Source of the DNA: Chiloscyllium plagiosum
Taxonomy: Eukaryota
Direction of reading: 5' to 3'
NCBI RefSeq assembly: GCF_004010195.1
Contig: NC_057759.1
Location: 163,644 to 221,310 of the forward strand
Length of the DNA stretch: 57,667 bases
The notes beneath the pieces are model-generated. The model did not search any database and was not told the DNA's origin. It worked only from the letters and a program-made list of their open reading frames with translations. This document shows, in pieces, positions 182 to 55,700 of this stretch; the first letter of the stretch is position 1; every line of letters begins with the position of its first letter. A program made the position numbers and the translations under genes.

Positions 182-747
182 ACAAGTAGAGGAAAAACAA
201 AACGGGACTTACACATCGTCTTCCATCAACAAACCTGGTGGTCCAGGTTGCTGAGAGGCCTTATTCCTGGCTGGGGTATTGATATGGCCCTAGATCAGAT
301 AAGTGACCTTGTGTAGGATATCAAAAAACCTGTAACTCGACCGCCCATGCTTTGAAGCTGGTGAACAAAGAGTTACAGGAGACTCACATGATGATGCTTC
401 AGAATCAACTAGTGCTAGATTTCCCCCTTGCTAAAGGAGGAGACATTTGTTCAGTCATTGGCCCGCAATGTTGCACCTACATCGATTATTTCTTGAAAGA
501 CATTTTGGATAATACAGATGTTATCAACAAAACGGGTCAAGACTCAGGGAAGGTACCTGCCCCACAGTCATCTGATTCACGTGGATGGAGTTTTACTTGC
601 TGGCTATGGTCGCTGTACGGATGGATCCCGTGGGACGTACTGATAATCCTTGGTCTCATCCTAGGAATATACATTGTCGTCCACTTATGCATGAAATGGA
701 CCGTACATTGCTTTTCACCGAAGCCAAAGAGGAATCTGATTAATTGA
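182..747 (+). pseudogene. env: Endogenous retrovirus env remnant (end of SU and whole TM subunit, gamma-type env)
   Basis: Basic cleavage site RGKTKR (188-205), then a hydrophobic fusion-peptide-like segment WWSRLLRGLIPGWGIDMAL. A TAG at 314-316 and a frameshift near 325-335 interrupt it. ORF 352-747 has the ISD-like LQNQLVLDFPLAKGGDIC, a CX6CC motif (CSVIGPQCC), a Trp-rich membrane-proximal region and a TM helix VLIILGLILGIYIVV. Confidence 0.9.
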
Positions 748-2495: not shown

Positions 2496-3480
2496 AGATG
2501 CTACAGAGATATCTGTCAGGGCCCCAGCTCTTTCCTCTCTTGCATCCCCTAGCAACCTGGGATAAATCCCATCCAATCCTGGGGATTTGTCTATCTTAAT
2601 AACCTCTAGCCTACCCAACACATCTTCCTACTTATTTCAACATGATCTAGAGTAATCAAGCTTCTACCTCTAATCTCAACAGTCATCATGTTCCTGTCCT
2701 CCGTGAACACTGATGCAAAGTTATGATTCAGAATCTCCCCAATTTTCTCAGGTTTGATACATGGCCTTCCTTCCTTATCCTTTAGTGGACCAATCCTTTC
2801 TCTCATTACCCACTTGCTTCCTATATAAGAATAAAAGGCTTTGGGATTTTCCATACTCCTGCTGGCTGAAGCAATGTCATGACCCTTTTTAGCCCACTTG
2901 ATTCCTCGTTTAAGACTGGTCCAACTCTCCTGATATTCCTCCAGGGCCCGTTCTGTTCTTACCTGCCTGGACCTTATGTATGCTTCCCTTTTCCTCATGG
3001 CTAGTTGTACAATTTCTCCTGTCATCCATGGTTCACGATTCTTGTTTTCCCTGTCCCTCACTTTCAATGGGACATGCCTATCCTGCATTATCTTCAACCT
3101 ATCTTTGAAAGCCTCCCACATATCAAATGTGGACTTCCCTTCAAATAGCTGTGTTCAATACCCATTTCACATCTCCTGCCTTATTTTGATATAATTGGCC
3201 TTGGCCCAGTTTAGTACACTTCCCTTAGGACCACTCTCATCTTTGTCTAAGAGTATACTAAAACTTACACAATTGTGGTCACTGTTCCCAAAGGACTCCC
3301 CACAGCAACTTCTACCACCTAGTCTGGCTCACTCCACAACACCAGGTTCAATATGGCCCCTTCCCTCATCGGACTATTGACATACTGCTCTAGAAAACTG
3401 TCCTGGACGCTTCTTACAAATTCTGCCCCATCCAGACCTCTGGCACTAAGTGTATCCCAGTCAATGTTGGGAAAATTAAA
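2496..3480 (-). mobile_element. CR1-clade LINE ORF2, inverted 5' part (endonuclease end to RT start)
   Basis: The minus strand reads FNFPNIDW...FLEQYVNSPMREGAILNLVL at the 3480 end and DKSPGLDGIYPRLL...GALTDISVAS at the 2496 end. Contains ORF 2606-3121. Confidence 0.9.
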
Positions 3481-4863
3481 CAGTGAGGTGCCAGAGGACT
3501 GCAGGGTTGCTCATGTTGTCCCCCTGTACAAGAAGGGTAGTAGGGATATTCCGGGTAACTACACACCAGTGAGCCTGATGTCAGTGGTGGGAAAGTTGCT
3601 GAAGAAGTTACTGAAGGATAAAATCTATTTATATTTGGAAAAGAATGGGCTGATTGGTGATAGGCAACATGATTTTGTGCAGGGGAGTTCGTGCCTTACC
3701 AACTTAATTTAGTTCTTTGAGGAAGTGACCAAGTTGTTAGATGAAGGAAAAGCTGTACATGTCATACACATGGACTTTAGTAAGGCGTTTGATAAGGTTC
3801 CAAGGTAAATTAATGGAGAAAGTGAAGTCACATGATGTGTAGGGTGTTCTAGCCAGTTGGATAAAGAACTGGTTGAGCAACAGGAGACGGAGTAGTACTG
3901 GAAGGGAGTTGCTTGAAAAGGAGAAAGGTGACCAGTGGTGTTCCACAGGTATCAGTGCCGAAGCCACTGATCAGCAAGCTTGCAGATGACACGAAGATTG
4001 GTGGAGTAGCAGAAAGCATAGAGGACTGTCAAAGAATACAGGAGAATATAGGTAGACTGGACAGTTGGGTGGCAAAGTGGCAGATGGAGTTCAATCCAGG
4101 CAAATGTGAGGTGATGCATTTTGCAAAGTCTAATTCTAGAGCGAATTATACAGTAAATGGAAGAGCCTTGGAAAGTTGATGAGCAGAGAGATCTGGGAGT
4201 TCAGGTTCATTGTACCCTGAAGCTTGCTGCACAGGTGGGTAGAGTGGTTAAGAAGGCATACGGTATGTTTGCCTTCATTGGACGTGGTATTGAGTATAAG
4301 AGCTGGCAGGTCATGTTAAAATTCTACAAGATATTGGTTCGTCCGCATTTAGATTACTGTGTCCACTTCTGGTCGCCACATTACCAAAAGGATGTGGACG
4401 CATTGGATAGGGTGCAGAGGAGGTTTACGAGGATGTTGCCTGATATGGAAGGTGCTAGCTATAAAGGGAAGCTGAGTCGGTTAGGATTGTTTTCATTAGA
4501 AACTAGAAGATTGAGGGGGGAACCTAATTGAGATCTACAAAATCATGAAGGGTATAGACAGGGAAGATAGAGATACGTTTTTCCCAGGGTGACATGTTCA
4601 AGGTGAGAGATGAAAAGTTTAAGGTGGATATACGCGACAATTATTCAACACAGAGTGGTAGGTGCCTAAAATGCATTGCCAGTAGAGGCAGGCAGGTAGA
4701 TTCATTTAAGATGCCTCTGGACAGATGTATGAGTAGATGGGGAGCAGAGGAATACAGATGCTTAGGAATTGACCGACAGGTTTAGACAGTGGATTTGGAT
4801 CCACTCAGGCCTGGAGGGCCAAAGGGCCTGTTCCTGGGCTATAAGTTTTCTTTGTTCTTTGTT
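3481..4863 (+). mobile_element. CR1-clade LINE RT and 3' end (degenerate)
   Basis: EVPEDCRVAHVVPLYKKG, SGVPQ, KLADDTKIGG, WQMEFNPGKCEVMHF, LVRPHLDYCVHFWSP, followed by a (tctttgt)n tail. Confidence 0.92.
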
Positions 4864-4865
4864 AT

Positions 4866-5045
4866 ATTGCCTTCCTAACCGCCAACTGAACCTGCCTGTT
4901 AACCTGAAGAGAATCCTGAACTCGGACTCCCAAGTCCCTTTGTGCTTCAGATTTCCGAAACCTTCCCCCATTTAGGAACCAGTCTCCGCCTCGATTCTTC
5001 TAAACCCATTGCATACCCTCCCACACTGTCATCCATCTGCCAACC
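4866..5045 (-). mobile_element. CR1 LINE RT fragment
   Basis: Closely resembles the CR1 piece at 51640-51750. Confidence 0.7.
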
Positions 5046-5279
5046 GAACCTTAACAGGATCCTGAACTCGGACTCACCCCCGAGGACCTTGTTTGTGCTT
5101 CAGGCCTGGCAGCATCTGTCCAGAGACAGACAGAGAGAAAGCGGAGTCAACGTTTCGAGTCCGGGGCAGCCGTCCTTCGGGAGAGTGGCCTTTGGTCTTG
5201 ATGTGCCGCCGCACAATTTCTTGTTCACTCCCACCTCTCTGTCTGTGTGTGTATTTGTCATTATTATTGAGTTTGGCGA

Positions 5280-5585
5280 GTCCCGGAGCCGGCCCTGTTG
5301 TTTCTCTCTCCTGAAAGGGTTGTCCCTTTAAAGAGCCTTTCCCCTGAAGCAGCTGCTAACGGTCACTTGGGGCACGAGGCGGCCGTTAACCGCCATCTCG
5401 CGCGGGGCCTGAAGCTAAAATGGCGCCGGGGCCACGCGGGAAGGAAAAGTGCCGAGGGACAGCGGACTGTGTCAACATGTCCCGTTCCCGAGGGTCAGGA
5501 TGGTGGTTATTGGGGGGTGGAGGGGGATAGGAGAGATTCCCCCTCCCAGTGAGGAATCTTGTACAGACCGCGAGGTCTCGCTCCG
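5280..5585. promoter_or_regulatory. CpG-rich promoter-like segment with YY1 motifs
   Basis: Local CpG enrichment in a CpG-poor background. AAAATGGCG at 5417-5425 and CGCCATCT at 5391-5398. Confidence 0.5.
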
Positions 5586-5915
5586 TCTCTATACATCTAT
5601 CTTTCTCTGTAACTGTCTGATTATGGCTTGCTTTAATTCTCTGATTATGTCGATTGTTCTTGTACAAAAGAGGTCTCTTTCTTTATGTATCTCCGTGTCT
5701 CTGTCTCTCTCTGTTTGCCTGTCTATGACTTGCTTTAACTCTGTCGATTAGCCTCGATGACACTGTGATTTTGTGCCTCTTTCTGACTCTGTTTGACTGT
5801 GTTTCTTTAAACCTCTATGTCCCTGTGTGTGTCTATGTCTCTCTCTGTTTCTCCCTCCCTCTCTGTGACCCTCTGACTCTCAGTGACTCTGCAACTCTCT
5901 CTGACTGTATGGTGA
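5585..5915. repeat. CT/GT-rich low-complexity tract
   Basis: Degenerate (ct)n, (ctgt)n and ctgact units. Confidence 0.6.
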
Positions 5916-5983
5916 GAGTACTGTTTGTTGCTGAACACAACTCCTGCCTTAGAAAAGTGCCTAACAGTTTGCTTTAATCACAG

Positions 5984-6258
5984 GTATCCCTGTGTCAGTC
6001 CTAGAGCTGAGTGTCCACACTGGAAATGAGGTAATGGAGGGAGACAGCACCTTGTTAAACTACTCTGTTCGACCCCAGTTGAATATATTTTCTGTAAGGA
6101 TGGTGAAGAAATGTAGTGGGAATACACCAACCACTGCAGAACCGTACACACAATCATCAATATCAGCAAAAGTCAAGAGGGCAATTAGCACTGTGCTGTT
6201 TCTAACCAGCAGGCAGAGTCTCTCCTGAACAGCAAATATATCGCCATTTCAGTGCGTT
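5984..6258 (+). pseudogene. Ig C2-type domain exon of the FCRL-like pseudogene
   Basis: Branch point CTAAC (5961-5965) and acceptor tttaatcacAG. Phase-1 translation GIPVSVLELSVHTGNEVMEGDSTLLNYSV (B-strand Cys replaced by Tyr, 6061-6063), a frameshift near 6070, then STPVEYIFCKDGEEM*WEYTNHCRTVHTIINISKSQEGN*HCAVSNQQAESLLNSKYIAISVR. The donor site is degenerate. Confidence 0.85.
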
Positions 6259-6289
6259 TTTGAGCACCTCTATACAAATTGACATGATC

Positions 6290-7200
6290 AGAGCAATGTG
6301 ATGGCACCAGGGAAGCATGCAGAGGGAGATTTACCAGGATGTTACCTTGGGGGCTGGAAAGTTTCAGTGATGGAGAGAGATTGGACAGACTGGGGTTGTT
6401 TTCCTTCGAGCAAGGCAGATTGAGTGTGTGGGGACATGATTTAGATGTATAAAATGATGAGGGGCGTAGACAGGAAGAAACCTCCCCCACCCCCTTGAAG
6501 GAGGGATCAATGACTGGGGGAGGGGCATAGACTGAAGTTAAGGGATAGGAGGTTCAGAGGGGAATGTGAGGGAAAACATTTTCACTCAAGGGGTGGTAGG
6601 GAATTTGGAACTCACTGCCAGTAAGGGGGGGAGAGGCAGAAATCCTCATCACATCGAAGAACGATTTAGATGTGCAGTTCCAATCCAAGGCTAGAGAAGG
6701 ATATTGTGCCTATGGAGGGAATGCAGCGAAGGTTTCCCAGAATGATTCCTGGGATGGCAGGACTGACAGATGGAGAGAGACTGGAATGATTAGGATGACA
6801 CTCACTGGAATTTAGAAGAATTGAGCGGGAATCTCACAGAAACCTATAAATTTGAACAAGGTTGAAACAGAATAAACATTGAGAGGGTGTTGCCAGTGAC
6901 CAGGCGGAGAGTCCAGAACCAGGGGATCACAGTCAAAAGGAAATTGAGTGGGACTGAGATGGGGAGAAATGACTTTACCCAGAGAGTGGGGAGCCTGTGG
7001 AATTCTCTGTCACAGAAAGCAGTCAGGGCCAGAATACTGAATGTTGTTCAGGAAGGAGTTGAATTGAGTTCTTTGGGGCTAAATGGAGAGTGCGGGGAGA
7101 CAGGGGACTGTATTGGGTGATCAGCCATGATCCCTTTGAATGGGCGGAGCAGACTAGTGGAGCCGAATGGCCCCCTCCTGATGAGATTTTCAATGTTTCT
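6290..7200 (+). mobile_element. Two old CR1 LINE 3' fragments in tandem
   Basis: Typical CR1 3' ORF2 and tail motifs (gagatttaccaggatgttacc, gactggggttgttttcc, ctgtggaattctctg). Confidence 0.7.
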
Positions 7201-7567
7201 CTGTGAATGGCCCAGTTGCCGCTGACTGGTGGAGGACAAGGCAAGTTTTGCCTCGATTATATGCAGGCCGTGAAAATGAGGGACAGTAATTTCTAGTTGA
7301 CAATTTAGAGAGAGTTGGTGCAGAGTGATCTTTTGAGTTTAGCATCGAATAGTTTGGGTTGGATTGGTTAGATGTTGTTAATGAGACAGGCTGCACAAAA
7401 GCAATGATACTACTGCGATGGTGAGGGTTTGGAGGGAATTTTCAGACACGAGGGTTTTCCTCCAAACGAACGAGTGTTGGCAGGGGGTTCAGGGCGACAG
7501 GGAACACTGGGGTTGGTGTTTGCTGAAGGGATGATGTTATTGACAGGAAATCCCTCTCTGAATCCAG

Positions 7568-7669
7568 CACAGGCACACAGCACTGAGATGGCAGTACTCA
7601 TTGTCCCACTGTTTCTGATCCTTTCTCTCCTCGCATTGCTTCCCATTAAACTCCGAGATTGGAAACAAG
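7568..7669 (+). pseudogene. Transmembrane exon of the FCRL-like pseudogene
   Basis: Acceptor ctctctgaatccAG, phase 1. QAHSTEMAVLIVPLFLILSLLALLPIKLRDWKQ is an uncharged helix followed by basic residues. The donor reads ttgagt instead of gtgagt. Confidence 0.8.
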
Positions 7670-7754
7670 TTGAGTGAGACATTCCTGCAGGTAACCCCGG
7701 CGATTGTTCTCCAGTTGGCACTCGATGTAGGTTTCAAACTGATATTGCTCATAT

Positions 7755-7905
7755 AGTGTGTGTATGAGAGAGTATGTGTGTGAGTGCGTTTGAGTGAGAG
7801 TATGAAAGTGTACATGTCTGTGTGAGAGAGAGAGACACATACACACACATTCTCATTGACACTTACGCAGACTTTCACGTGCACACTCACACACTCACTC
7901 AGTCA
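7755..7905. repeat. (GT)n/(GA)n/(CA)n microsatellite mix
   Basis: Directly visible dinucleotide runs. Confidence 0.7.
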
Positions 7906-7974
7906 TGTCTGCAGTGCACATTGTAGACCACATTTAAGAATCTGAACACCGTCCAGGGACAACACAGCCCCAAG

Positions 7975-8345
7975 CGCGCTCAGTAGCAGCTATGAGATGC
8001 CCTGCAGAAATTCACCAAAGATCCTCAGGCAGCACCTTCCAAACCCACAACCATGTCCATCTAGAAGGACAAGCACAGCAGATACATGAGAATACCACCT
8101 CCTGCAAGTTTCCCTCTGAGCCACTCACCATCCCAACTTGGAAATATATCAGCCATTCATTTAGTGTCGCTGGGTCAAAATCCTGTAGTTCCCTATCGAA
8201 TGGTATCGTGGGTCGACCTACAGCACAGGGACTGTGGTGGTTCAAGAAGGCAGTTCATTACCTCCTTCTCAAGAGGCCAAAGAGGGATGGATAATAAATT
8301 CTCGGCCCAGCCAGTGATTTTCACAACCCACCAGTGAATTAAAAA
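7975..8345 (+). mobile_element. LINE 3'-end fragment
   Basis: A reverse-complement homolog lies at ~52870-53390, with related ends at 13190-13305 and 48890-48980. Ends in an A-rich tail. Confidence 0.65.
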
Positions 8346-8604
8346 AGAAATAAAGCTCTATTTGGGAATGTGCTTTGTGAGGATGTCGGCAGGCTGAACA
8401 AGTGGCAGACGAAATTACTTGGGGAGACATACAAAACAATGTGGTGTGTTCAGAGGAATGGTCAGCACAGATATAAACTAAAGGTTAAAATTGGAATAAT
8501 TGTTCTTGCGCATCAGTCAAAGAACCCAGATTCAGTTGCTAGCAGGTGAAGCTGAATATTTGCAGTGAAACTTTCCAATGTTCTTTCTCTCTTATTTTCT
8601 CCAG

Positions 8605-8635
8605 CTGATTCTTCGAGCAGTTCCCAGTGGCACAG
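8605..8635 (+). pseudogene. Short cytoplasmic exon 1 (31 nt, phase 1 to 2)
   Basis: Strong acceptor ttctttctctcttattttctccAG and donor AG/gtaatt. Reads ADSSSSSQWH(R), in phase with the TM exon. Confidence 0.7.
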
Positions 8636-8829
8636 GTAATTTAGTGAGGTGGTTAGCAACTTCAAACAGCATTCAAACACTGTCTGAATGGGCTGTAAAT
8701 CACTCTGGGATGCAAACCTGGCAATTTTATATTTGTTCGACAAATTGGAGCAAATGAACTGTTGTGTCTGACTCGTTTGCAAATCTAAAGCACAACCGTT
8801 CAAATTGATGACACACTCACAATTTCCGT

Positions 8830-10990
8830 TAGACAGTGAACTGAGCGTTGGTCAGTCGCATTAGCAGTGAAGTTATCCATTGCAGTTGGAAGAATTGAAA
8901 CAGGGAACTTATCATCTGAATAGGAGAGAAAGTTCAAAATGTCAGTGCAAAGGCTACAGCAGGTCACAAGGAAGACATTTATTGCGAATGGAATTGAGTA
9001 TGGAAGTAGGTAATTGTTACTGCAACTGTACAAGGGATTGGGGTTTCCACATCCGGAGTACTGCAGACAGTTTTGGTCCCTTTACTTGAGGAGGGATGTA
9101 GTTGAATTGGAGGGAGTTCAAAGGAGATCACTGAATTGATGGCCCTGATGAAAGTTTAGTCTTATGAGAAGAGACTGGTACAATTTTGATCTCTTTACTT
9201 GAGGACAGATGCAGTTTATACTGGAGGTAGTTCAGAGGAGATTCTCACAATCATTTCCAGAAATGAAGGGTTTGTCTCGGATGAGCGATTGAGCAGTTTC
9301 TCTGGAGTTTGTAAGAGAGGAGATTGAACTGAAGGTTATAAAATGCTAAAGGGAGTATTGACAAAGGCGTTGGAGAGAGGATGTTTGCTCATGTGGGAGA
9401 ATCTAGAACAAGAGGTTATCATTTCAGGATAAGGCAGACTGAAAACAGAGGTAAGGAGGAATGAATTCTCTCAAATGAGGAAAGGGTTGTAAATCTGTGG
9501 GATCACTCCTTCCAACCCCCACCACTCAGGACTCTGCATAAATTGAAGGAGGAGACAGACAGATTGTTAATCAGTGATGGATCAAAGGGTGTGTTTGCAG
9601 GAAAGTGGAGTTGAGGCTGAGATGGGATCAGCTACGATCGTATGGAATAATGGAGCAGGTTCCTGATGAGCCAAATGGACTCAAACTTAATTTTCACCCT
9701 CCTAGTAGTTTTGCTACTAACTAATAATATATATCCACAAGAACATACAGGCTCGGATCAGGTTAATTTAGCAAAATAGGTTTTAATTTGTGAACATTGT
9801 AAATTAAATACAAAAGTGATTCCACACAAATTTGGTGAAGGATGTTGGTTGAAAGAAACAAAAAGACAATACAAAGTAGGGGGTAAAATTCTAAAGAGGG
9901 TGCAGGAGCAGAGGGAGTTGGGGGTATGTATCCACAGATCAGTGAAGGCGGCTTAAGTAGGGGAGAGCAGTTAACGAAACGCACAGCATCCTCAGCTTTA
10001 TTAATAGGGGCATAGAGTCCAAGAACAAGGAGGTGATGTTGATATTGAAGTTGTAGAAGACACTGGTGGACCTCAGCTGGAGTGTCAGAGAGTGATAACT
10101 GATAGGTAGTGGTTCAACCTGAGGGTTACCATGCCTCACACAAGGGAAGGAGTAGAGGAGGACAGTCCTTCATGGTAACCTCAGTCATTGAGAGATTCAA
10201 ACCCACGCTGTCGATGTTACTCCACATTCCAAACCAATTATCCAGCCAACTGAGCTAACCTGACACCCAACACAAAGCAGAGAGCAGAAAAGAAATTAAT
10301 CCCGGTGACAGCACAAGTCTTGAATGGAGGATATTAGATTATGTTGGAGATACATCTTTGATCTGTTGGGTATTTCTTTATATGTGTGTAACACCTTACC
10401 TTCATAGGCAACAGTAGCTGAATTTAGAAATACATTTGATAAAGGGAGTTGGCCTTCTATTACCCAGGCTGGTTTTCTTCTGTTCTGGACACCTTACTTA
10501 AGGAAGGATGCTTAAACCCTGGATACAGTGTGAAGGAGATTTACGAGAATGATCACAACGATGAGGGATTTTAGATTCAGGGAAAGGTTCAAGAGATTGA
10601 GCTTATTCGCTTTTGAGCAGAGAAGATGAAATGTTGACCTTATTGAGACGTTGAAAGTTTGAACAATTCTGACGGGAAAGCAAGTTATTGTTTCCCACTC
10701 ATTGGTCTATTAGTAACTGGCTGGTCAGAATTTCAAGATTGTCAGTGAGAGTGTGAGATGAGGAGAAACTTATTGAGGTTGTTGGGTTTGGAATGTGCTG
10801 CTTGGGAGAGTGGTGGAGGCGGATTGCATCGGAGGTTTGAAAAGAGAGCTGGATATAAATTTGAAAGAGATGATGGTAGAGGGCAACAGAGATAGGGCTG
10901 GAGACTTGGACTTGCTGGGTAGCTCGTTCAGGAGCTGGTACATACATGAATGGTATCCTTCCATACAGTAAAAGTTTATGAATCTATGAA
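8830..10990 (+). mobile_element. Cluster of degenerate CR1 LINE fragments and one SINE-like piece (~10110-10270)
   Basis: Recurrent CR1 RT C-terminal and 3' UTR motifs. The SINE-like piece recurs at ~14530-14670 and ~55497-55635. Confidence 0.6.
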
Positions 10991-11158
10991 CATACAAGTT
11001 CTGAGCCACGTTTCGGATAATTCCAGGAGGTCATTCCTTGGGACCTTGGCTCAGTGACCTCGTTGCCAGGGGTTTTTGTACGCAAACAGCAGCAAATTGT
11101 TGTCACGAGCGGGATTGGAACTTGGTTGGGTAATGGTCTAGAAATATTTCATTTCAAG

Positions 11159-11248
11159 GGAGGCGATGGAAGATCAAGCTGAGGGCATGAGTGAGGACAG
11201 ACCTGCAAGAAATTTCGAATGCACAGATCGGGTCAAGCCGATTAAATG
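11159..11248 (+). pseudogene. Cytoplasmic exon 2
   Basis: Acceptor atttcatttcaAG and donor TG/gtgagt. The phase-2 start continues exon 8605-8635 and gives an open frame (R)EAMEDQAEGMSEDRPARNFECTDRVKPIK. Confidence 0.6.
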
Positions 11249-11349
11249 GTGAGTATGATTCTGTGAGGTGCTGATCCTGCACCGTCACATATTGGTCAGA
11301 ATTAATGCTGATATTTATCTGATTGGGAAGATCCGCAAAAACAAATCTC

Positions 11350-12305
11350 TTCCTGGAAGTGTTGGAGGGAAGTTTCTGTTGTTTCCTTTACAACAGAGGT
11401 TGATGGGGGAGGGGGAACATGACAGAGGTGTGTAAGATTGGTAGTGTTGTCGAGCAGAGCACCTGAGGGGTTCAGGTCCATAATTCTTTGGAGTTTGTGT
11501 CACAGGTAGACAGGGTGTTTCAGAAGGTGTTTAGAACACTTGCCTTCATTGTACAGACCATTGAGTGTTGGAGTTCGGACACCATGTTGTGGTTGTACAG
11601 GACACGGGTGAAGCCTGCTGTGGTGTATTGTGTCCAGTTCTGGTTGCCCTATTAGAGGAAGGACATTATTAAGCTGGAGAGGGTTCAGAAAAGATATACC
11701 AAAATGTTGTTGGGAATGGAGAGTTTGAGTTATAAGGATGGACTGGGACTATTTTCACTGGAGAGTAGAAGTTTGAGAGGTGTAGAGGTTTATGAAATCA
11801 TGATGGGTATAGATGAGGTGAATGGCAGGTGTCTTTTCCCTAGGGTGGGGGACTTCAAGACCAGAGGACATATTTTTCAGTTGAGAAGAGAAACATTTTT
11901 GAAAATGACATGATGGGTAACATTTTTTGACGGAGAGTGGTTCACGTGTGGATTGAACTTTCAGAGGAAGTGGCAGATACGGGGTCAGTTACAATATTTA
12001 AAAGACATTTAGTTAGTACAAGAATAGGAAAGGTTGGAGAGATAAGGGCCAAGTGCAAACAAGTTGGACTGTTTAGTTTGAGATTATGAACGGCATGGAT
12101 TAGTTGGACTGAAGGGTCTGATTCCTTGCTGAGTGACTCTATGACTCTATTATGAGGGACATGGCCAGGGAGGACAGGAAGCAGCTGTTTCCCTTAGTCA
12201 AAGGGTCAGTAACAAGGGGGGACATCATTTTAAAGTGAAGGGTACGGGGTTTCGATAGTGATTTGAGGATTGTTTCACCCAGAGGACAACGGGGATCTGG
12301 AATGT
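11350..12305 (+). mobile_element. CR1/HER1-type LINE 3' fragment(s)
   Basis: ORF 11704-11913 (LGLFSLESRSLRG...LFPRVGDFKTRGH) and tail gactctatgactctat. Confidence 0.8.
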
Positions 12306-12424
12306 GTGAAGAAAAAAAAATTTGGAATTTCAATTTCTATTTGAACTCACTAATTGTTCCGGTGTGTGGGAATGCCACTTTGTAACTGCAAGTGGTTGCA
12401 TGATTTATTAATGTGGAATATTCG

Positions 12425-13045
12425 TATAAAGGAGCAGGAGGTGGCCATGGAGGAGGCCCTTGAGCCTGTTCCACCATTCAATGCCTGATTGGTGACCTGA
12501 CTCCATAGACCTGTCTTTGGCCCTTATCCCCTTAAAAATCTTGCTGAACAAAAAACTTATCTCTCAGATTTAAAACTAACAACTGATCCAGCAATGCCTG
12601 CTTTTGTGGAAGAGAGTTCCAAACCTCCCCCAGCCTCTGTGCATATTAGTACTTCTCTTCTGAACAGTCTAGTCCTAGTTGTCCGGCTATGCCCTCTCAA
12701 TTTCTAAGATCCCCAAACAGTGGAAATACTTTCAATTTATCCACCCTGTCTTTTCCTGTTAATATCTTCAATCAGATCATCCCTGAACTGTGTAAATTCT
12801 GGACAGAACACACTTAATTTGTGTAATCTCTCCACATAACTTAACCCCTGAATCCCAGGTATCATTCTTGTAAACTCATACTGTACTTCCTCCCGGGCCA
12901 ATCTATCCTTCCTCAGGTGTGATGCCCAGATCTGCTCCAAGTGGGGTTGAACCAGGGTTTTGTATAACTGCAGCATCCCTTCTGCATCCTCGTACTCCAG
13001 TTCTCTCGATATAAAGGCCAGCATTTCATTAGCTTTCGTCAGGCA
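12425..13045 (-). mobile_element. CR1 LINE 3' fragment
   Basis: ORF 12737-13024 (MLAFISRELEY...LYKTLVQPHLE...FTRMIPG). Confidence 0.8.
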
Positions 13046-14350
13046 CTGAGTGTCAGAAATAAAAAGAAATACAGAAATTGTTGGAAAAACTCAGCAGGGA
13101 CAGATTGTTTGCCACCTGGGGACTGACTGTTTACTGTTCAAAACAACTTTCCATCCAATGCGTGTCTATCTACAGCACATAGACTGCAGCAGTTTAAGAA
13201 AGCAGCTCACCTCTACCTTCTCAAGGGAACAACTAGGGATGAGTTGGGCAATAAATGCTGGGTCCAGTGGGTGATACCCATGTGCCACAAGTGAATAATA
13301 AAAAAATGTTATTTACCCCAGGGCCTCCACCTTCCCCATGTGAGGTTGTTCTGGGAGGGGAGATGCCAACTTTGTAGTGAATGTTGATGTAAAATACCCA
13401 TTTGATGTTATTGAGTCACCGGGTTCATGAACTACTTTGAAAAGGTTGATATAAAGGGGGGAGGGGGGGCGCAGTGAAGTCCCAGAGATTCCCACCCCCT
13501 CTCCCTTGGAGAGAAGCCATTTCTCAGCATAGCTGTTTTCAATCTGTCCCACCCTCTTCTCCTGAAACGATGACCCTCTCGTTCTAAATTGTCCCACATG
13601 AGGAAACACCTCCCTCAGTCTCCTTTGTCAATCCCACCTCCTTTAGTGTCCTATATCCCTCAGTTGGATTGCATCTCATTCCTCTAAACTCCAGAAAGAA
13701 TTGGCCTTGATTACTCAATCCCACTTTTGAAGACAAACCCCTCCTTTCTGAACATGAAATGTACAAAATCACATTGCAGTTGGATGGTATCTTGGATGTA
13801 GAATACACATCACAAAGTGCGTTAGTCATAACTTCTGAGAGATCTACAGCCCAGGAAAAGGCCCATAGGCCCATCGAGTCTGTGCCGGTCAGAAACAACC
13901 ACCTCACTATTCTCTAATCCCATTTCCTCAGCACATGGCCCCATAGCCCTGGCGTCACGAATGCACATCTACATCCTTCTTCAATGTGATGAGTGTTTCA
14001 TCTCCTCCCACCCTTACAGGCAGTAGGTTCCAGATTCCCACCATCCTCCGGGTGAACAAGATTTTCCTCACATCCCCTCGAAACCTCCTGGCCCTTAGCT
14101 TCAATCTGTGCCTCTCCTCCACCTCTGTCAAGGGGTGAAAGTTCCTTCCTATCTTCACTTCTCATTGTTTTATACATCCCTCTTTTCAATCTACTCTGCT
14201 GTATGGTCAACAACCCCAGTCTGTCCAATCTCTCTCAATCACTGAAACTCTCCAGCCCCCTGCTGGTAAATCTCCCTGTGAATTTTGTTGGAGTGGTAAC
14301 AGAGAGCAATGTATGTCCCGTTGGAAAAATGTCTTGTCTTTTATTTATAG

Positions 14351-14433
14351 CTCACTCCACTGGTGCATCAGGAAAGAAACACATAGGTTATTTTGTAGTG
14401 AAAAAGAGGGCCGTTAAGTTTTAATCAGCAAAG
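14351..14433 (+). pseudogene. Possible cytoplasmic exon with ITIM-like IGYFVV
   Basis: Acceptor ttgtcttttatttatAG. Phase-1 reading AHSTGASGKKHIGYFVVKKRAVKF*SAK, followed by a degenerate donor ttatgt at phase 0. A paralogous copy lies at ~55319-55399. Confidence 0.35.
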
Positions 14434-14694
14434 TTATGTTTTTAGCAGGCAGTTAATGTAAAGTCACCATTGTCTCATTAGAGAGAGGTGTGGGAGAGAA
14501 AAAGAGAGAAAAGCAACAACTGTTTATGGTTTAACCTGAGGGTTGCCACATCTAAGGCACAGGGAATGATCATTCACAGCAATCTCAACCAGAGCAGCAA
14601 TTGAACTACAAGCTGTCAACGTGACTATACATTGTAAGCCAACTATAGAATCAACTGAGCAAACCAACCCCTACATGGCCAATGGCAAAAATAT

Positions 14695-15180
14695 TGGGTG
14701 GCTCAGTGGCTGGGTGGTTAGCATTGCTGTCTCACAGCTCCAGGGACCCAGGAACAATTCCAGCCTCGGGTGACTGTGTGGAGTTTGCACTTTGTCCCCT
14801 TCTCTGCATGGGTTTTCTCCAGGTGTTCTGGTTTCCTCCCAAAGTCCAAAGATGTGGAGTTTAGATGGATTGGCCATACTAAGTTGTCCACAGTGTGAGG
14901 GATAGGCAGGCGAGGAGGGTTAGCCAATGCAAATGCAGTGTTACAGGGATAGGATAGGGCAGTGTATCTGGGTGGGATGCTATTCAGAGAGTCAGCGTGA
15001 ATTCGATGGGCTGAAAGGCCTGCTTCCACACTGTAGGATTCTATGATGTGGAGGTGAGGGGGATTGGCCATGGTTAATGCAGGGTTACGGGGATAGGGTC
15101 AGGGTTTGATGGGATGCTCTTCACTGGCTTGGGGAGACTGGATGGGCTGAATAGTCTCTGTCCACACTGTGTGGATTATG
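14695..15180 (+). mobile_element. Old HE1-type SINE with a second partial tail
   Basis: tRNA-like head gggtggctcagtggctgggtggttagcattgctg and core gtgtggagtttgcac...ggtttcctccca. Duplicated at ~55663-56150. Confidence 0.8.
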
Positions 15181-15765
15181 GCGACATCAGTGTTTAGCAC
15201 AAAGATGTGGTGAAATTTATTCTGAAATTAATTTTGATGGGATTCATTTTCAGTTTCTGAAATAATGGGGAAGCAGAATCCTATGTTTACACCTCCCCAG
15301 GGTATGTCCTGGTGATGTGAATTTGAATCTTGCTGTGGCAGGTGGTCGATTTGGAATTCGATTTGAAACAAAAATAGATCTGGAGTTAAGACTCTAATGA
15401 TGACTGTTGTCAGGAACAACCAACCATCTGGTTCAAAATTGAAGACTGAGGTGAGGAGGAATTTCTTCTCTCAGAAGGTTGAGTGTTTGGAACTCCTTGC
15501 CACAGAGAGCTGTGTGTGGGGACAGGGAGCAGGTTTATAGCTGGGGTATATAGATTCTTGATCAGTTGGGGAATTGAGGGTTACATGTTAAGTGCAGGAA
15601 AATGAGTGTGAGGAATGGTGCATCAGCCACGATGCTATTGAATGGCTTGAGAGGCCAAATAGCCTTCTCCTGTTCCTGTCTGTGATGGTCCTTCAGGAAA
15701 TGAAATCTGTCCTCCTCATCCAGTCTGCTCTGCACATGGCTCCTAATCCTTTCCAAATTCCTCAC

Positions 15766-15848
15766 CTCCTCCTGGCTGAGCAAGTCGATTGGTTCAAGGA
15801 CATTTCAGAATTGCATCCACTTTCCACTTTGGCAGAGATAGCCACATC
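15766..15848 (-). other. Orphan exon-like segment (83 nt)
   Basis: Minus-strand acceptor ttatttctctgcactctgaacAG and donor AG/gtgagg. Open frame DVAISAKVESGCNSEMSLNQSTCSARR. The paralog at 56746-56828 has lost the donor. Confidence 0.45.
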
Positions 15849-16009
15849 CTGTTCAGAGTGCAGAGAAATAACATTTGTCAGGGTCAGTTTTCGGCTTGTT
15901 GAAATCACATGCTTTGACAAGAGAAATTGGTCTGGATAATGACCCCAGATATTCACAGCTCCTCCTGAACACTATGTCTTTCAGGCAAAGGTTGTTATTC
16001 TCATCCAAA

Positions 16010-16870
16010 TTTAGAGTTATACAGCATGGAAACAGGCCCTTCGGCCCAACTCTTTTTAGCTTAACAGGTTTCCCAAATTCAACTAGTCCCATTTGTCTGC
16101 ATTTGGCCCATATCGCTCTAAACCTTTCTTATCCATGTACCTTTCCAAATGTCTTTAAAATGTTGTAATTGTACCTGCCTCTACCACTTCCTCTGGCAGC
16201 TCATTCCATATACTCTGCCCTCTGTGTGATACATTTGCCTCTCAGATCTCTTTTTAATCTTTCCCCTCTCACCTTAAACCTATGTCCACGAGTTTTGGAC
16301 ACCCCTACTCTGGGGAAAAGACCATAGCTGTTTAACTTACCTATGCCCCTCGTGATTTTATAACCTCTCAGGTCACCCCTCAGCCTCTGAAAAATTGGGA
16401 GTAAAGCTCCCAGATTATGCAGGTTCTTCTTATAACTCAGATCTACAGTCATGGTAACGTCTCTGTAAATCATTTCTGTACCATTTCCAACTTGAGAACA
16501 TCCTTTCCATAGCAGGTTGACCAGCACTGTAGACAGTGTTCTAAAAGTGGCCTCACCAACATCCTGTACAACTGTAACATGACGCCCCAACTCCTGCTGT
16601 CAGTGCTCTGACCAGTGAAGGGAAGCATGCCTTCACCACAATGTCTAGCTGTGACTCCACATTCAAGGAACTGTCTTCCTGCACCCCAAGGTCTGTTTGT
16701 TCAGAAACACTCCCCAGACTTGTACTAGTAACAGTATAAGTCCTGCCCTGGTTTGCCTTACCAAAATGCAACACCTCACATTTATCTAAATTAAACTTCA
16801 TCTGGATCAAATTTCCATCGTACTCTTAGATAACCTCCTTCTCTGTCCACAATGACACTACTTTTGGTCC
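16010..16870 (-). mobile_element. CR1/HER1-type LINE 3' fragment
   Basis: ORFs 16553-16810 (QMKFNLDKCEVLHFG) and 16201-16590 (RLRGDL...LFPRVGVSKTRGHRFKVRG). Confidence 0.85.
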
Positions 16871-16909
16871 TGCTCCTATCTACTACGTTTCTGTTTGTCC
16901 TGTTTTCGG

Positions 16910-17041
16910 GCTGACCAAGCAGAGCAGCAACCATCCTGCATCACATACGCCACTTTGAGGCACACAGGTACAGGAGGGAAGGAGGAACCAGGTCAAGATG
17001 AAGAGGGAAACATTTATGTCAATCTTCCACGGACATCGTGA
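16910..17041 (+). pseudogene. Terminal cytoplasmic exon with tyrosine motifs
   Basis: Long pyrimidine tract ending ttttcGG (AG apparently mutated). Reads ADQAEQQPSCITYATLRHTGTGGKEEPGQDEEGNIYVNLPRTS*, with the ITIM ITYATL and an acidic-preceded YVNL. Confidence 0.75.
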
Positions 17042-30116: not shown

Positions 30117-30437
<321 letters not shown>

Positions 30438-30464: not shown

Positions 30465-30510
30465 CCAAAGGCTCTTTTCAGAGCCACCCAAACTCTCCGA
30501 TAGAGAGCGT
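30465..30510 (+). promoter_or_regulatory. Histone 3' stem-loop and downstream element (H4)
   Basis: ccaaaGGCTCTTTTCAGAGCCaccca (stem-loop 30470-30485), followed by purine-rich tagagagc. Confidence 0.95.
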
Positions 30511-31831: not shown

Positions 31832-31878
31832 AGCTCCTTTCACAGATGCTGTGAGTGGCTCTTAAAAGAGCCTTTGGG
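31832..31878 (-). promoter_or_regulatory. Histone 3' stem-loop and downstream element (H2A)
   Basis: Minus strand cccaaaGGCTCTTTTAAGAGCCactca (stem-loop 31857-31872), then gtgaaaggagct. Confidence 0.93.
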
Positions 31879-31902
31879 TTATCAGATTCAAGAATGGTCC
31901 CT

Positions 31903-32357
<455 letters not shown>

Positions 32358-33864: not shown

Positions 33865-34224
33865 TCACTTGGAGCTGGTGTACTTGGTCACCGCCTTTGT
33901 GCCCTCCGACACGGCGTGCTTGGCCAGCAGCAGCACGGCGGTCTGGATCTCCCAGGAGCTGATGGTGCTGCGCTTGTTGTAATGGGCCAGGCGGGAAGCC
34001 TCCCCCGCGATGCGCTCGAAAATATCGTTGACGAACGAGTTCATGATGCTCATGGCCTTGGAGGAGATGCCGGTGTCGGGGTGAACCTGCTTCATCACTT
34101 TGTAGATGGAGTAACTTTCTTTCCTAGTCCTTTTCTTCTTCTTGCCGCCCTTCGCTGGCGTCTTCTTGATGATTTTCTTCGCGCCCTTCTTGGAGGCTTG
34201 CTGTGCTTTCTTCTCATCAGCCAT
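33865..34224 (-). pseudogene. H2B: Histone H2B, open frame (119 aa) but probably non-functional
   Basis: [17 protein letters not shown]...TKYTSSK. In-frame deletions give ESYSIYKV (two residues short) and [10 protein letters not shown] (versus TAVRLLLPGELAKHA), plus SSWEIQ for SSREIQ. The stem-loop is lost and the TATA and octamer are degenerate. Confidence 0.88.
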
Positions 34225-51114: not shown

Positions 51115-51905
51115 AGAACCCCTGAAGCCCAGGTATCAATCTTGTAAACTTACGCTGTACTACCAGGCCTATCTATCCTTCCTCAGGTGTGGTACCCAGA
51201 GTTCCGCAGATTCCCCACTGTCTGGCTGAAGAAATTCCTCCTCATCTCAGTTATAAAGGGAGTTCCCTTCACTCTGAGGCTGTGCCTTCAGGTCTTAGTC
51301 TCTCCTACTCGTGGAAACATCTTCTCTATGTCCATTCTATCCGGGCCTCTCAGTATTCTCCCAAGTTTCAACCAGTTTCTCCCTCACCCTTCTAAACACA
51401 ATCGAGTCCAGACTCATATTCCTCAACCTCTCCTCATATGACAAGCTCTTCATCCCTGGAATTTTTCTTGTGAACATCCTCTGGACTCCTTCCACGTTCA
51501 GCACATCCTTCCTTAGATAGGGGGGCCAAAACTGCTCACAATGTTCCAAATATGGTCTGACCAAAGCCTGATACAGCCTCAGCAGTACATCCCTGCTCTT
51601 GTATTCTACACCTCTTGAAATGAATACTGACATTCCATTTACTTAACTGCCAACTGAAACTGCCCGTCAACCTGAAAAGAATCCTGAACCTGGACTCCGA
51701 AGTCAATTTGTGCTGCAGATTTTCGAACCTTTTCCCCATTTAGAAAAGTCAACGCCTCTATTCTTCCTACTAAAGTACATAACTTCCCATGTTCCCACAT
51801 TGTATTCCTTCTGCCATTTTGTGGCACACTCTTCTAGCCAAATCCTTCTGCAGCCTCACCCCTTCCTCAATACTACCTGTCCTTCCAGCTATTTTTGTGT
51901 CATCA
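51115..51905 (-). mobile_element. CR1 LINE RT 3' fragment
   Basis: ORF 51337-51633 (FISRGVEYKSRDVLLRLYQALVRPYLEHCEQFW). Confidence 0.85.
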
Positions 51906-52046
51906 AAGAAACACTCAGGACAATGAAATGGCAATGCTCCTCATGTGAATGATGCTAGACCCAGAGCGAATGGCTCCTTGCCCCCAAAGACCAAGGCCAG
52001 AAGAGACCACTCTCAAACAATAAGCTGTTGTACTGGGGCAATCTAC

Positions 52047-52154
52047 AGATTCTGGATCAGTGGTGCTGGAAGAGCAAAGCAATTCAGGCAGCATCCGAGG
52101 ACAGGCAAAATCGACGTTTCGGGCAAAAGCCCTTCATCAGGAATAAAGGCAGAG
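52047..52154 (-). mobile_element. Penelope-like terminal fragment with intact hammerhead motif
   Basis: Near-exact reverse complement of 28137-28240. Hammerhead core at 52113-52140. Confidence 0.85.
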
Positions 52155-52715
52155 TGTCCCAAGGCCTAAAATGTAGGTATCGCCTGAAAACAAGATGAAG
52201 CAATTAGCCATCAGTGTAACGTTCCCTCTTCTAATTCACATTGCCCTGTTGTTAATTTAGTTGACATAGATGGAACATCTCTATGATTTAGATGATTGCA
52301 AACCCGATCGATGATTAATAAATACAAATGTTAAAAGATTTGAAAAGCTTGGGCAGACCTTTGCTCCATCCTATGAGCAAGAGAAACACTAGCGATGTTT
52401 AAATGTGGCTGGGTATTTGAGGGTTAAGATAAACCAGAGAAAATCTCCACTTTCACTGAACCAGAAATGTTATAAAGTGTATATATATTATATTCTTTAC
52501 CAGTCTTTCTTGGTTTGAGATGGTGGAAACTGAGTACACCAAACTGCTATCTGTTTTGGAGTCCTCTATAATCAAAAAACAATTAGCAAAGTGAACCAAA
52601 AGATTATAGATCAGAATGTTAAAATAACAGCAAACAATGCCTCAAAATTAAATATGGAGTGTTAATTAAGATTGCAGTCCCAACCCAACAGTCATATAAA
52701 CCTTAGCTCTTGACT

Positions 52716-55700
52716 ATATAGCAACATTTTCAAAGCAGTTCATGAACCAGGTGACTCAAATAACATCGAATATGTATTTTGCATCAACATTCACGACAAA
52801 GTTTGCGCACACCCTCCCAGAACAAGCTCACATAGGGAAAGTGGAGGCCCTGGGGTAATTTACAATTTTTTTTATTATTAATCACTTATGACACATGGGC
52901 ATCACTCACTGGACCCTGCACTTATTGCCCAACTTATCCCTAGTTGCCTACTTGAGAAGGTAGGGATAAGCTGCTTTCTTGAACCGCTGCATGTGCTATG
53001 GATAGAAGCGCATTGCCCTGAGGGAGGGAATTCCAGGGTTTTAACCCAATGATTCTGAAGAAATAGTGTTATATTTCGAAGTCAGAACACTGAGAGGCCC
53101 AAAAGGGAACTTGTAGAGGGTGGGTGTTTCCATGTATCTGCTGCACTTGTACTTCTAGATGGAAGTGGTCATGGATTTTGAAGGTGTTGCCCGAGGATCT
53201 CTGGTGTATTTTCGCAGTACATCTTGGTATTGCTGCTGGTAAGCATTGGTAGTAGAGGGAGTGGATGCTTGTGGATGTGGTTCCAGTTAAGTGGGGACTG
53301 CTTTTTGCGTCAATGATGTTGAGCTTTTCGAATATTGTTGGAGCTGCAACCATCCAGGCAAGTGGGGAGCATTCCATCACACTCCTGACTTGAGACTGAG
53401 ATACTTGGAATGGCTCAATCAGGGAAGACTCTGACCATATATATCTCTCTAAGGAATAAAATCATTAAGAATCAATATAGTTCTATCTTCCTCAGATGGA
53501 TCCCAGGGTCTACCCTACAAATTCCAAGTTGAGTCACACCCATTGCAATGGCCTCCCTCAGATAAACGGAAAGCCTTTGCATCTCAAAGTACGCCCCTTG
53601 TTCGAGGATCTTGAGGTTTTTAAACAAAATAATAGTTGCCATCCTGTATCCCTGTGTTCTTCACTGAAGAGTACACGGCTCCAGCACAGCTCAAAACTAA
53701 AGGGTCAAAAGAAAAGATGGAAAGTTGTCTTCAACAGCAGTCAGACAGTCCCCAGGTGGCAAATAATATCTGTCCCTGCTGAGTTTCTCCAACCATTTCT
53801 GTATTTCTTTTCATTTCTGACATTCATTGCCTGAAGAAAGCTAATGGAAGGCTGTCCTTTACATCGAGAGGACTGGAGTACAGGGATGGAGAAGAGTTGC
53901 TGCAGTTATACAAAACCTTGGTTAGACGCCACATGGAGCAGATCCACAATTTCTTCAGCCAGACTGTGGGGAATCTGTGGAACTCATTACTGCAGACAGC
54001 TGTCATAATGTCTTTAAGATAGAGATAGGTACTTGATCAGGAGGATCAACTGTTAGAGAGAAGGCAGGAAAATGGGGTTAACAAACATATCAGCCGTGAT
54101 GGAATGGCGGAACAGACTTGATGGGCCGAATACCTGCTACATCTTATGGTCTTGGTTACTAAGAGACTAACAGACTGTGATGCATCACACAGTTTAGGCC
54201 CTCAGATCCAGAGTTCTGAGCACGTACTATGAGCCAGCCACACTAAAGACTGTTCAGGCAGCTGGACGATCAACACAACATACAGGCTAGGAGCCCTGGG
54301 GACCCTGCTTCCCCCATTCTACACAGCTGCAGCTGATCTCATCCCAGCCTCACGACAGTTTCCTGTCCCCACTCCCTTTAACCCCTCACTGATTAATAAT
54401 CTGTCTGCCCCCTCCTTCAATTTATTCAGTGTCCCGACATGCCCCCACATACTGGGAAGTGAACTCCCAGAGATTCCAACCCCCTCTTCCTTGGAGAGAA
54501 GCAATTTCGCAACATCTCTCGTTTCAATCTGTTCCACCCCCTTCTCCTGAAACAATGACCCTCTCATTCAAAATGGTCACACCTGAGGAAACATCCTCTG
54601 TCTCCTTTGTCAATCCTGCCCCCTTTACCACCCTATATCCCTCAGTTGGCTCTCCCTTATTCCCCTAAACTCCAGAGCATATTGGCCTTAACTGCTGAAT
54701 CTCTTTTTCGACGACAAGACCCTCATCTCTGAATATGAAATGTACAAAATCACACTAGATAGTATCTTGGATGTAGAATACACATCTCAAAGTGAGTTAG
54801 TCATAGTTTCTGAGAAGTCTACAGCCCAGAAAAAGGCCCATCGAGTCTGTGCTGCTCACAAACAACCACCTTGATATTCTCTTATCCCATTTCCCCAGTA
54901 CTTGGCCCCATAGCCTTGTGCCACGAGTGCACATTTAAATCCTCCTTCAATGTGATGAGTGTTTCTGCGTCTCCCACCCTTACAGGCAGTGAGTTCCAGA
55001 TTGCACATTACCCTCTGGGGGAACAAGATTTTCCTCATATCCCCTTGAAACCCCCTGGCCCTTACCTTCAATCTATACCCCTCCCCCACCTCCATCAAGC
55101 GGGGAAAGTTTCTTCCTGCCTCCCCTATCTTCATCATTTCACACATCCCTCTCTTTCAATCTACTCTGCTGTAAGGACAACAACCCCAGTCTGTCCAACC
55201 TCTCTCAATCACAACTCTCCAGCCCCCAAGGCAATATGCTGGTAATTCTCCCTGTGCACCCTCTCCCACTTCATTTAGATACGTACCGTAGGTAAAGTGT
55301 CTTTTCTTTCATTTACAGCTCACTCCAATAGTGCATCAGGGAGGAAACATATGTTATTTTGCAGTGAAAAAGAGGGCAGTTAATTTTTAATCAGCACAGT
55401 TATGTTTTTAGCAGGCGGTTAATATAAAGTCACCATTGTCTCATTAGAGAGAGGGAGAAAGAGGTGTTGGGGAGAAAAAGCAAACATCTGTTTTATGGTT
55501 TAACCTGAGGGACACCACATCGAAAGCACAGGGAATGATCACTCACAGCAATCTCAACCAGAGCAGCAATTGAACGCATGCTGTCAGTGTGATTGTACAT
55601 TGTAAGCCTACTATAGAATCAACTGAGCTAACCAACGTCTGCATGGCCAGTGGCAAAAACATTGGGTGGCACAGTGGTTACCATTGTTGCCTCACAATGC

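Follow-up and report, generated by a model that had tools for sequence, protein, structure and literature searches.

A dead copy of a probable Fc receptor-like gene in Chiloscyllium plagiosum and the intact, probably inhibitory, receptor family it marks in sharks and rays

We analysed a 57,667-nt stretch of the genome of Chiloscyllium plagiosum (the window; C50:163644-221310, where C50 is the 8.08-Mb contig NC_057759.1), in which a broken copy of a gene resembling the Fc receptor-like (FCRL) immune receptors lies on the plus strand between positions 5984 and 17041. Positions given without a contig are those of the window. Six exons were delimited by pairwise alignment with an intact paralog on C50: a dead exon in the position of the fourth immunoglobulin (Ig) domain (D4; 5984-6251; Pfam Ig_2, E 3.7e-12 for the intact counterpart); a transmembrane (TM) exon with an uncharged helix in open frame (7568-7669); a first cytoplasmic exon of 31 nt with phases 1-2 and intact splice sites (8605-8635); a second cytoplasmic exon (11159-11248); a cytoplasmic exon of 32 nt (14351-14382); and a last coding exon in open frame (16910-17041), carrying ITYATL, which fits the consensus of an immunoreceptor tyrosine-based inhibitory motif (ITIM), and IYVNL, a YxN motif. 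An earlier note, made from the letters alone, had proposed five or six exons on one strand in the order of a type-I receptor; the alignment gives six, and the phases that the note reported (1-1, 1-1, 1-2 and a phase-2 start) also hold in the intact gene. All of the motifs it named are present on the plus strand: IPVS at 5986, EY.F.KDG at 6081 and EGN(stop)HCAVSN at 6177, with TAG as the Y codon, and at the 3' end ITYATL at 16940 and IYVNLPRTS with its stop finishing at 17041. Since the six segments match a gene modelled intact by RefSeq, in order and with introns of 70-76% identity between them, a chance resemblance is excluded. Two further candidates were dropped: 15254-15301 is conserved intron, missing from all five RefSeq isoforms, and a longer TM exon (7547-7690) contains an in-frame stop, the real exon being 7568-7669.

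The window copy is unable to encode a receptor. The D4-position exon has a 10-nt deletion after 6066, a change of the first Cys to Tyr (6061-6063), TAG stops at 6114 and 6186, and a donor damaged by a 7-nt deletion. The donors of the TM exon and of the 32-nt exon have changed from GT to TT and AT, respectively, and the acceptor of the last exon from AG to GG. In the second cytoplasmic exon, a 2-nt deletion shifts the frame and takes out the tyrosine of DYAEI, the first tail motif. Alignment gaps, read as deletions, stand in place of the membrane-proximal Ig exon and of two exons of the tail. Homology to the intact gene begins at ~5742, leaving a remnant of the D3-D4 intron (5742-5983, plus strand), and as this onset falls within that intron, the leader and D1-D3 are missing. 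In total, two frameshifts and two stops interrupt the coding sequence, and splice sites are broken. What remains is a single Ig exon with the TM exon and four exons of the tail; the leader and the other four Ig exons are gone. With an open frame, a leader and an intact set of splice sites all absent, the copy is as dead as had been supposed, and is itself an ordinary pseudogene. The additional Ig exons that the note suggested looking for upstream are not there: what survives is the 3' part of a gene with five Ig exons, truncated at its 5' end, none of its Ig exons was found in the 40 kb upstream (a stretch that includes assembly gaps), and none is expected given that the break lies inside the D3-D4 intron.

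The intact paralog (P0009, XP_043539736; 656 aa, labelled 'PECAM-like' by RefSeq) maps exactly to 14 exons at C50:2531147-2502959. The leader takes up two of these (40 and 30 coding nt), the Ig domains five, the TM segment one and the tail six; the six exons of the window have their counterparts among them. A contig from a probable RNA run of a related species joins the D2, D4 and membrane-proximal exons (see below). The split signal peptide is a feature of FCR and FCRL genes, and an uncharged TM followed by tyrosine motifs that are each placed on their own exons is that of the inhibitory FCRL class. There are five tail motifs (FDYAEI, AVYSSV, LLYSVV, IIYATL and NVYANV), two of which we take to fit the ITIM consensus. 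A second subfamily on C50 has six to eight Ig domains; of nine of its loci examined, four are broken. The other five (1.48, 3.85, 4.90, 6.98 and 7.07 Mb) have open exon sets and are apparently intact, judged from these frames, and three of them match the proteins P0045, P0064 and P0190. A charged TM core residue occurs in none of the TM exons seen on C50, and an activating NxxR or charged-TM partner was likewise absent among the TM exons seen, with no dedicated search made for one.

Homologs named FCRL-like or PECAM-like are present in Hemiscyllium, Stegostoma, Scyliorhinus, Mustelus, Heptranchias, Heterodontus, Carcharodon, Cetorhinus, Pristis, Mobula, Narcine and Hemitrygon; no chimaera occurs among the 20 named of 147 new representative matches. 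The shark and ray models that RefSeq calls 'Fc receptor-like protein 2/3/4/5/6' or 'PECAM-like', names that are automatic and inconsistent, are intact members of the C50 family (for example XP_043539736, XP_043539714, XP_059498323, XP_078069580, XP_067833446 and XP_069783097), and the family is thus not hidden, as the earlier note had called it. A different FCRL-like type was seen in Mustelus (P0172, XP_078069576), the fourth domain of which is nearer to tetrapod D4 and the last two domains of which group with the D5 type. At C26:11.07-11.12 Mb there are tandem genes in which a V domain, presumably CD300/pIgR-like from its look, is paired with a PVSVP-type C2 domain.

We estimate a probability of about 0.8 that this shark gene family belongs to the FCRL family and that its intact receptors are inhibitory. 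The nearest relatives outside cartilaginous fish are tetrapod FCRLs, which upholds the proposal that the copy marks a shark family of ITIM-bearing FCRL-like receptors. In a homolog search, the seven matches (of 19) outside cartilaginous fish were all from frog or turtle, five of them named FCRL; in all, the homologs beyond sharks and rays include frog, turtle, caecilian, kiwi, alligator, paddlefish and mammal FCRLs. In an alignment of 11 rows, of which five are shark and the others include kiwi, turtle and alligator FCRLs, the five domains are in register, and four tail tyrosines are kept in at least 90% of the rows. Domain trees omitted 27 of the 151 extracted domains, which were mis-cut, near-duplicate or from redundant species. 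The resulting IQ-TREE tree has 124 domains and, at 87 columns, is short for that number of rows. It joins the shark membrane-proximal domain to its tetrapod and paddlefish counterparts (kiwi, turtle, alligator, caecilian, frog and paddlefish) at 100/95, and this was repeated at 100/98 in a 46-row tree. Shark D3 falls in a clade with tetrapod and paddlefish D3 (92/94; best pairwise score 85), with FCRLA and FcgRI D3 matched in register. Shark D2 groups with tetrapod D2 (93/89), which gives moderate support to its assignment as D2-type. The window exon itself matches FCRL4 D4 in its position and IPVS start. The proposal would have failed if no intact paralog joined the exons in one transcript or if the Ig domain fell with an unrelated family, and neither is the case.

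As a control we used a separate PECAM1-like gene, seen as a single locus at C24:48.06-48.10 Mb (P0194) and carrying added allergin-like domains. It has the PVSxP...GSxPIxYxFY domain type of the window exon and ITIM-type tail motifs, but lies on another contig, has PECAM1-type N-terminal domains and lacks the FCRL-type membrane-proximal domain. The control matches PECAM1 structures over D1-D2 (E 1e-12) and not FcgRI. The C50 gene gives the reverse pattern: FcgRI was matched, whereas PECAM1 N-terminal D1-D2 was not, either at E 1e-8 or within the 60 top-ranked of 71 profile matches. A profile of 12 shark sequences searched against PDB had FCRL5, FcgRI and FCRL4 as its seven best matches, with FcgRI D2-D3 in register at E 3e-36.

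Expression was examined in sequencing runs and in published single-cell data. Contig 22, from a probable RNA run of a related species and mapped on 10 kb of the intact gene, lies on the D2, D4 and membrane-proximal exons in consecutive coordinates, with junctions at exon boundaries and with D3 skipped; it differs from the intact gene at 30 of 755 letters. Variants at the same depth (65.9) suggest that it continues into the TM and second tail exons. A same-species run gave a 273-nt contig on D4 with zero differences; introns are also covered at a low level, so this run alone is weak. For the window copy no RNA record was listed, which speaks neither for nor against its transcription. PMC11372145 reports high levels of fcgr1a-like, fcrl3 and fcrl5 in the B cells of bamboo shark. 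Its Supplementary Data 2 gives LOC122544513 ('PECAM-like isoform X5') for 47.7% of B cells but for 3.2% of the remaining cells, and LOC122544517 is also a B-cell marker there. Both LOC numbers fall among histone-gene numbers, and two C50 genes have an isoform of the name 'PECAM-like isoform X5'. Expression of C50 genes in B cells is likely.

Several observations weigh against the assignment to FCRL and the inhibitory role in B cells. That LOC122544513 is a C50 gene we infer from its name and number, and contig 22 comes from another species, skips D3 and stems from a run that is only presumed to be RNA. Shark D1 aligns in the N-terminal position of FCRLs yet groups apart from tetrapod D1, falling inside the D3 clade, probably by long-branch attraction; the pairwise scores of D1 and D2 are non-discriminating. 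The leader exons (40/30 nt) differ from the 30/21 nt of mammalian FCRLs, a rule that holds in only a fraction of XFL genes (PMC2413239). With an AlphaFold model of mean predicted local distance difference test score 72.8 and predicted template modelling (TM) score 0.45, Foldseek returned generic multi-Ig matches at low TM-scores, PIR-B first, FcgRI being the highest in identity among the matches shown. FCRL5, as a top match, is not diagnostic, because the C24 PECAM1-like control matches it better (E 4e-64) than the C50 gene does (E 2e-49); in some species the C24 gene itself bears the name FCRL5, which makes names within the FCRL/PECAM group misleading. The window domain type scores 124 against a shark PECAM1 domain, 87 against tetrapod FCRL D4 and 79 against tetrapod FCRL D5, and in an approximately unbiased test neither PECAM1 (p 0.43) nor FCRL D4 (p 0.26) was rejected as its sister. 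An IPVS-type Ig exon had been described as typical of FCRL and PECAM-1; this holds for the domain type, but such an exon cannot alone separate the two. As for the markers of human 1q21-23, the calponin-repeat, NDUFS2 and TCR-zeta/FcRgamma matches lie off C50 (SLAM, IGSF9 and DUSP23 were not searched), that of NDUFS2 on an unplaced contig, and no classic neighbours were found in the listed parts of ~150 kb of the C50 end and 50 kb of the NDUFS2 contig.

Alternatively, the C50 cluster could have expanded in sharks and rays alone from the PECAM1/allergin-1 branch of the superfamily, or be a mosaic, its likeness to FCRL then being due only to shared ancient domain types. The 'PECAM-like' RefSeq label, the best score of the window domain against the shark PECAM1 domain, a FastTree grouping that joins the two (0.85) and the lack of any classic FCRL neighbour found on C50 are all in line with such an origin. 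We nevertheless consider it decidedly improbable, since the PECAM1-like gene is separate on C24 without the FCRL-type membrane-proximal domain, and D3, the membrane-proximal domains and the four-tyrosine tail of the C50 genes match tetrapod FCRLs in order. The adjacency of the C50 cluster to histone genes offers a weak parallel, by analogy, to human FCGR1A and HIST2H2BF, which share one 1q21.1 interval (PMC3047561).

If the C50 genes are FCRLs, a mode of action can be proposed from what is generally known of ITIM, SHP-1/SHP-2 and Grb2 motifs and of FCRL signalling. Once the receptor binds its ligand, or is clustered together with the B-cell receptor, the tyrosines of the ITIM-type motifs LLYSVV and IIYATL would be phosphorylated; the phosphorylated motifs would recruit SHP-1/SHP-2-type phosphatases, and activation would be damped. 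The terminal YxN may be a Grb2-type site. By this analogy, the intact shark receptors are likely to be inhibitory receptors of B cells. The ligand-contacting tip is likely to be the fast-evolving D1, which is 78% identical to its Hemiscyllium counterpart (other Ig domains, 92-98%) and 48% identical between two paralogs (other Ig domains, 66-77%). The variability of D1, the highest of any domain, suits a ligand that changes at least as well as an invariant Fc, and perhaps better.

Within the FCRL reading, the intact receptors might bind immunoglobulin (IgM, IgW or IgNAR) and give antibody feedback on B cells. D2-D3 are in register with FcgRI, the D2 Trp aligned to the FcgRI 'HAWK' is kept in the type-A gene, and expression is likely in B cells. 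However, the Trp of the D1-D2 linker, which has a role in Fc binding, is absent, and the variability of D1 would suit changing or pathogen ligands. From the literature, a 1988 paper is titled 'Fc receptor for shark IgM' (known from a reference entry in PMC6795676), whilst Ig binding has been argued to be a later mammalian specialisation (PMC2413239). On balance, we regard an immunoglobulin ligand as a tentative and rather unlikely proposal. Similarly speculative is the wider scenario in which an FcR family with a D2-D3 core, a membrane-proximal domain, a four-tyrosine tail and a histone-linked cluster was already present in the jawed-vertebrate ancestor, with one intact shark gene being a receptor for IgM, IgW or IgNAR; we would not expect both parts to hold.

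The window copy is one of many. A DNA search of the genome with its Ig exon gave at least 41 matches, a lower bound because 40 of 56 candidates were scored: 24 on C50, one on C24 and 16 on small contigs. Of the 30 matched copies examined, 29 are broken, the one with an open frame being C50:2518015-2518296 (minus strand). After removal of one duplicate locus, 40 D4 exons were aligned. The 10-nt deletion is common to 33 of these (one, partly N, assigned by the tree, and three with 9 or 11 gap positions), all on one side of the tree with support 89/83, and 28 of the 33 have TAG at the same codon. Within this deletion clade, extra states number 82, 82 and 87 at codon positions 1, 2 and 3, as expected without selection, and thus change has been neutral since the deletion. 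At all three other C50 sites compared, kilobase-long blocks of 80-95% identity recur, including an upstream env-like relic and, in one case, downstream histone genes. We infer that the dead unit multiplied after breaking, by segmental duplication in a histone-gene cluster. The rival notion, that many of the copies are assembly artefacts such as uncollapsed haplotypes, would draw on the 16 of 41 matches that sit on small unplaced contigs and on a closest pair differing by 1.5%; against a mean pairwise difference of 13% in the clade and 24 of the 41 matches at distinct places on C50, we find it very improbable.

In many dead copies, a GC- and CpG-rich, promoter-like segment (4867-5650 in the window) is fused to the 5' break. 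Across 21 copies compared with that of the window, its core (5340-5490) shows 0.019 differences per site and the Ig exon 0.107, the CpG-rich core being ~5x less diverged among copies than the adjacent exon. This raises the question of whether dead copies are maintained or spread via noncoding transcription from the captured segment, or whether the segment is itself functional. In addition to the conserved core, there are ~89 single-cell reads that map to a single intronic site of the intact gene but differ from it in sequence, and their overhang fits three dead copies with 1-2 mismatches. These reads are unspliced and few (~2% of the run examined), however, the core has been lost in several copies, the segment matches no Rfam family, and low CpG decay or gene conversion can explain the conservation; a role in transcription or maintenance seems improbable to us. 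Neither a zinc-finger gene nor a tRNA explains the segment. Its core carries two opposed motifs that we take to be YY1-like. Relatives of the core at 82-83% occur on C4 and three small contigs, and the C4 copy (83%) lies upstream of exons, presumably osteoprotegerin-like, at C4:112.574-112.582 Mb.

Elsewhere in the window there is an intact histone H4 gene (30126-30437, plus strand; 3' stem-loop at 30465-30510), a histone H2A with an interrupted N-terminus (~31900-32250, minus strand; stem-loop at 31832-31877) and an H2B-like frame with small in-frame deletions (~33870-34224, minus strand); of 40 histone H4 matches found in the genome, 21 are on C50. An open stretch at 307-747 (plus strand), part of the duplicated unit and recurring at other C50 sites, has no Pfam match but resembles the end of a retroviral env in its CX6CC-type motif and hydrophobic tail. 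Immediately upstream of the GC-rich segment, 3450-4590 is decayed sequence that is presumably reverse transcriptase of the long interspersed nuclear element type. A second partial copy of the receptor tail is at 51200-57300, with two tail exons inverted (53697-53653 and 52566-52516), and another dead D4 exon lies past the window end at C50:224209. At the contig end (C50:8.065-8.071 Mb), exon-like frames without a Pfam match resemble, we assume, HECTD4.

Akula et al. 2014 (PMC4016189) reported no FCRL in shark genomes and placed the origin of the family in bony fish, and a 2026 review (PMC13337447) repeats this absence and raises the question of how cartilaginous fish cope if they have no Fc receptors. 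A literature search, with subscription papers and preprint supplements outside its scope, found no account of the shark FCRL genes as a family; FCRL or Fc receptor terms occur in neither the main text of PMC7677710 nor the supplement of PMC3964593, and PMC9974502 contributed nothing further. What was already known are FCRL names in gene catalogues and a mention in one single-cell paper on shark B cells. The shark and ray FCRL family is thus real and catalogued, but apparently unanalysed. If our assignment is correct, a collinear family in sharks and rays moves the origin of FCRLs back to the first animals with antibodies and provides, in one laboratory-accessible species, about six named genes open to tests of antibody binding and B-cell inhibition. 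The mass duplication of the window copy among histone genes is, in its own right, a clear case of the neutral spread of a dead gene.

Among known systems, kiwi XP_025934861 and alligator XP_059575111 match the shark gene in the number (five) and order of their Ig domains; caecilian XP_030043362 and turtle P0033/P0037 were also compared. The reptile, bird and amphibian FCRLs, with the Xenopus XFL genes, resemble the shark genes in the membrane-proximal type, uncharged TM, separate tail exons, two-exon leader, four aligned tail tyrosines and clustered birth-and-death evolution. Identity to these FCRLs is 17-36% per domain, shark D1 and the D4-position domain do not group firmly with their counterparts, and no activating NxxR-type TM was seen in the shark genes examined. 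A sixth domain subtype has been described in XFL (PMC2413239); 'D6' for the shared membrane-proximal domain would be a label of our own. Human FCRL5, FCRL4 and FcgRI (PDB 9loc, 9mbz and 8din) are the best PDB matches of the shark protein and profile, and are collinear with the protein over D1-D3 and beyond. In the mammalian FCRLs examined, D5-type domains are repeated and the shark membrane-proximal type is missing; FcgRI signals through an adaptor. The tail of lion FCRL2 has IVYSEV and then YENV, like the shark tail.

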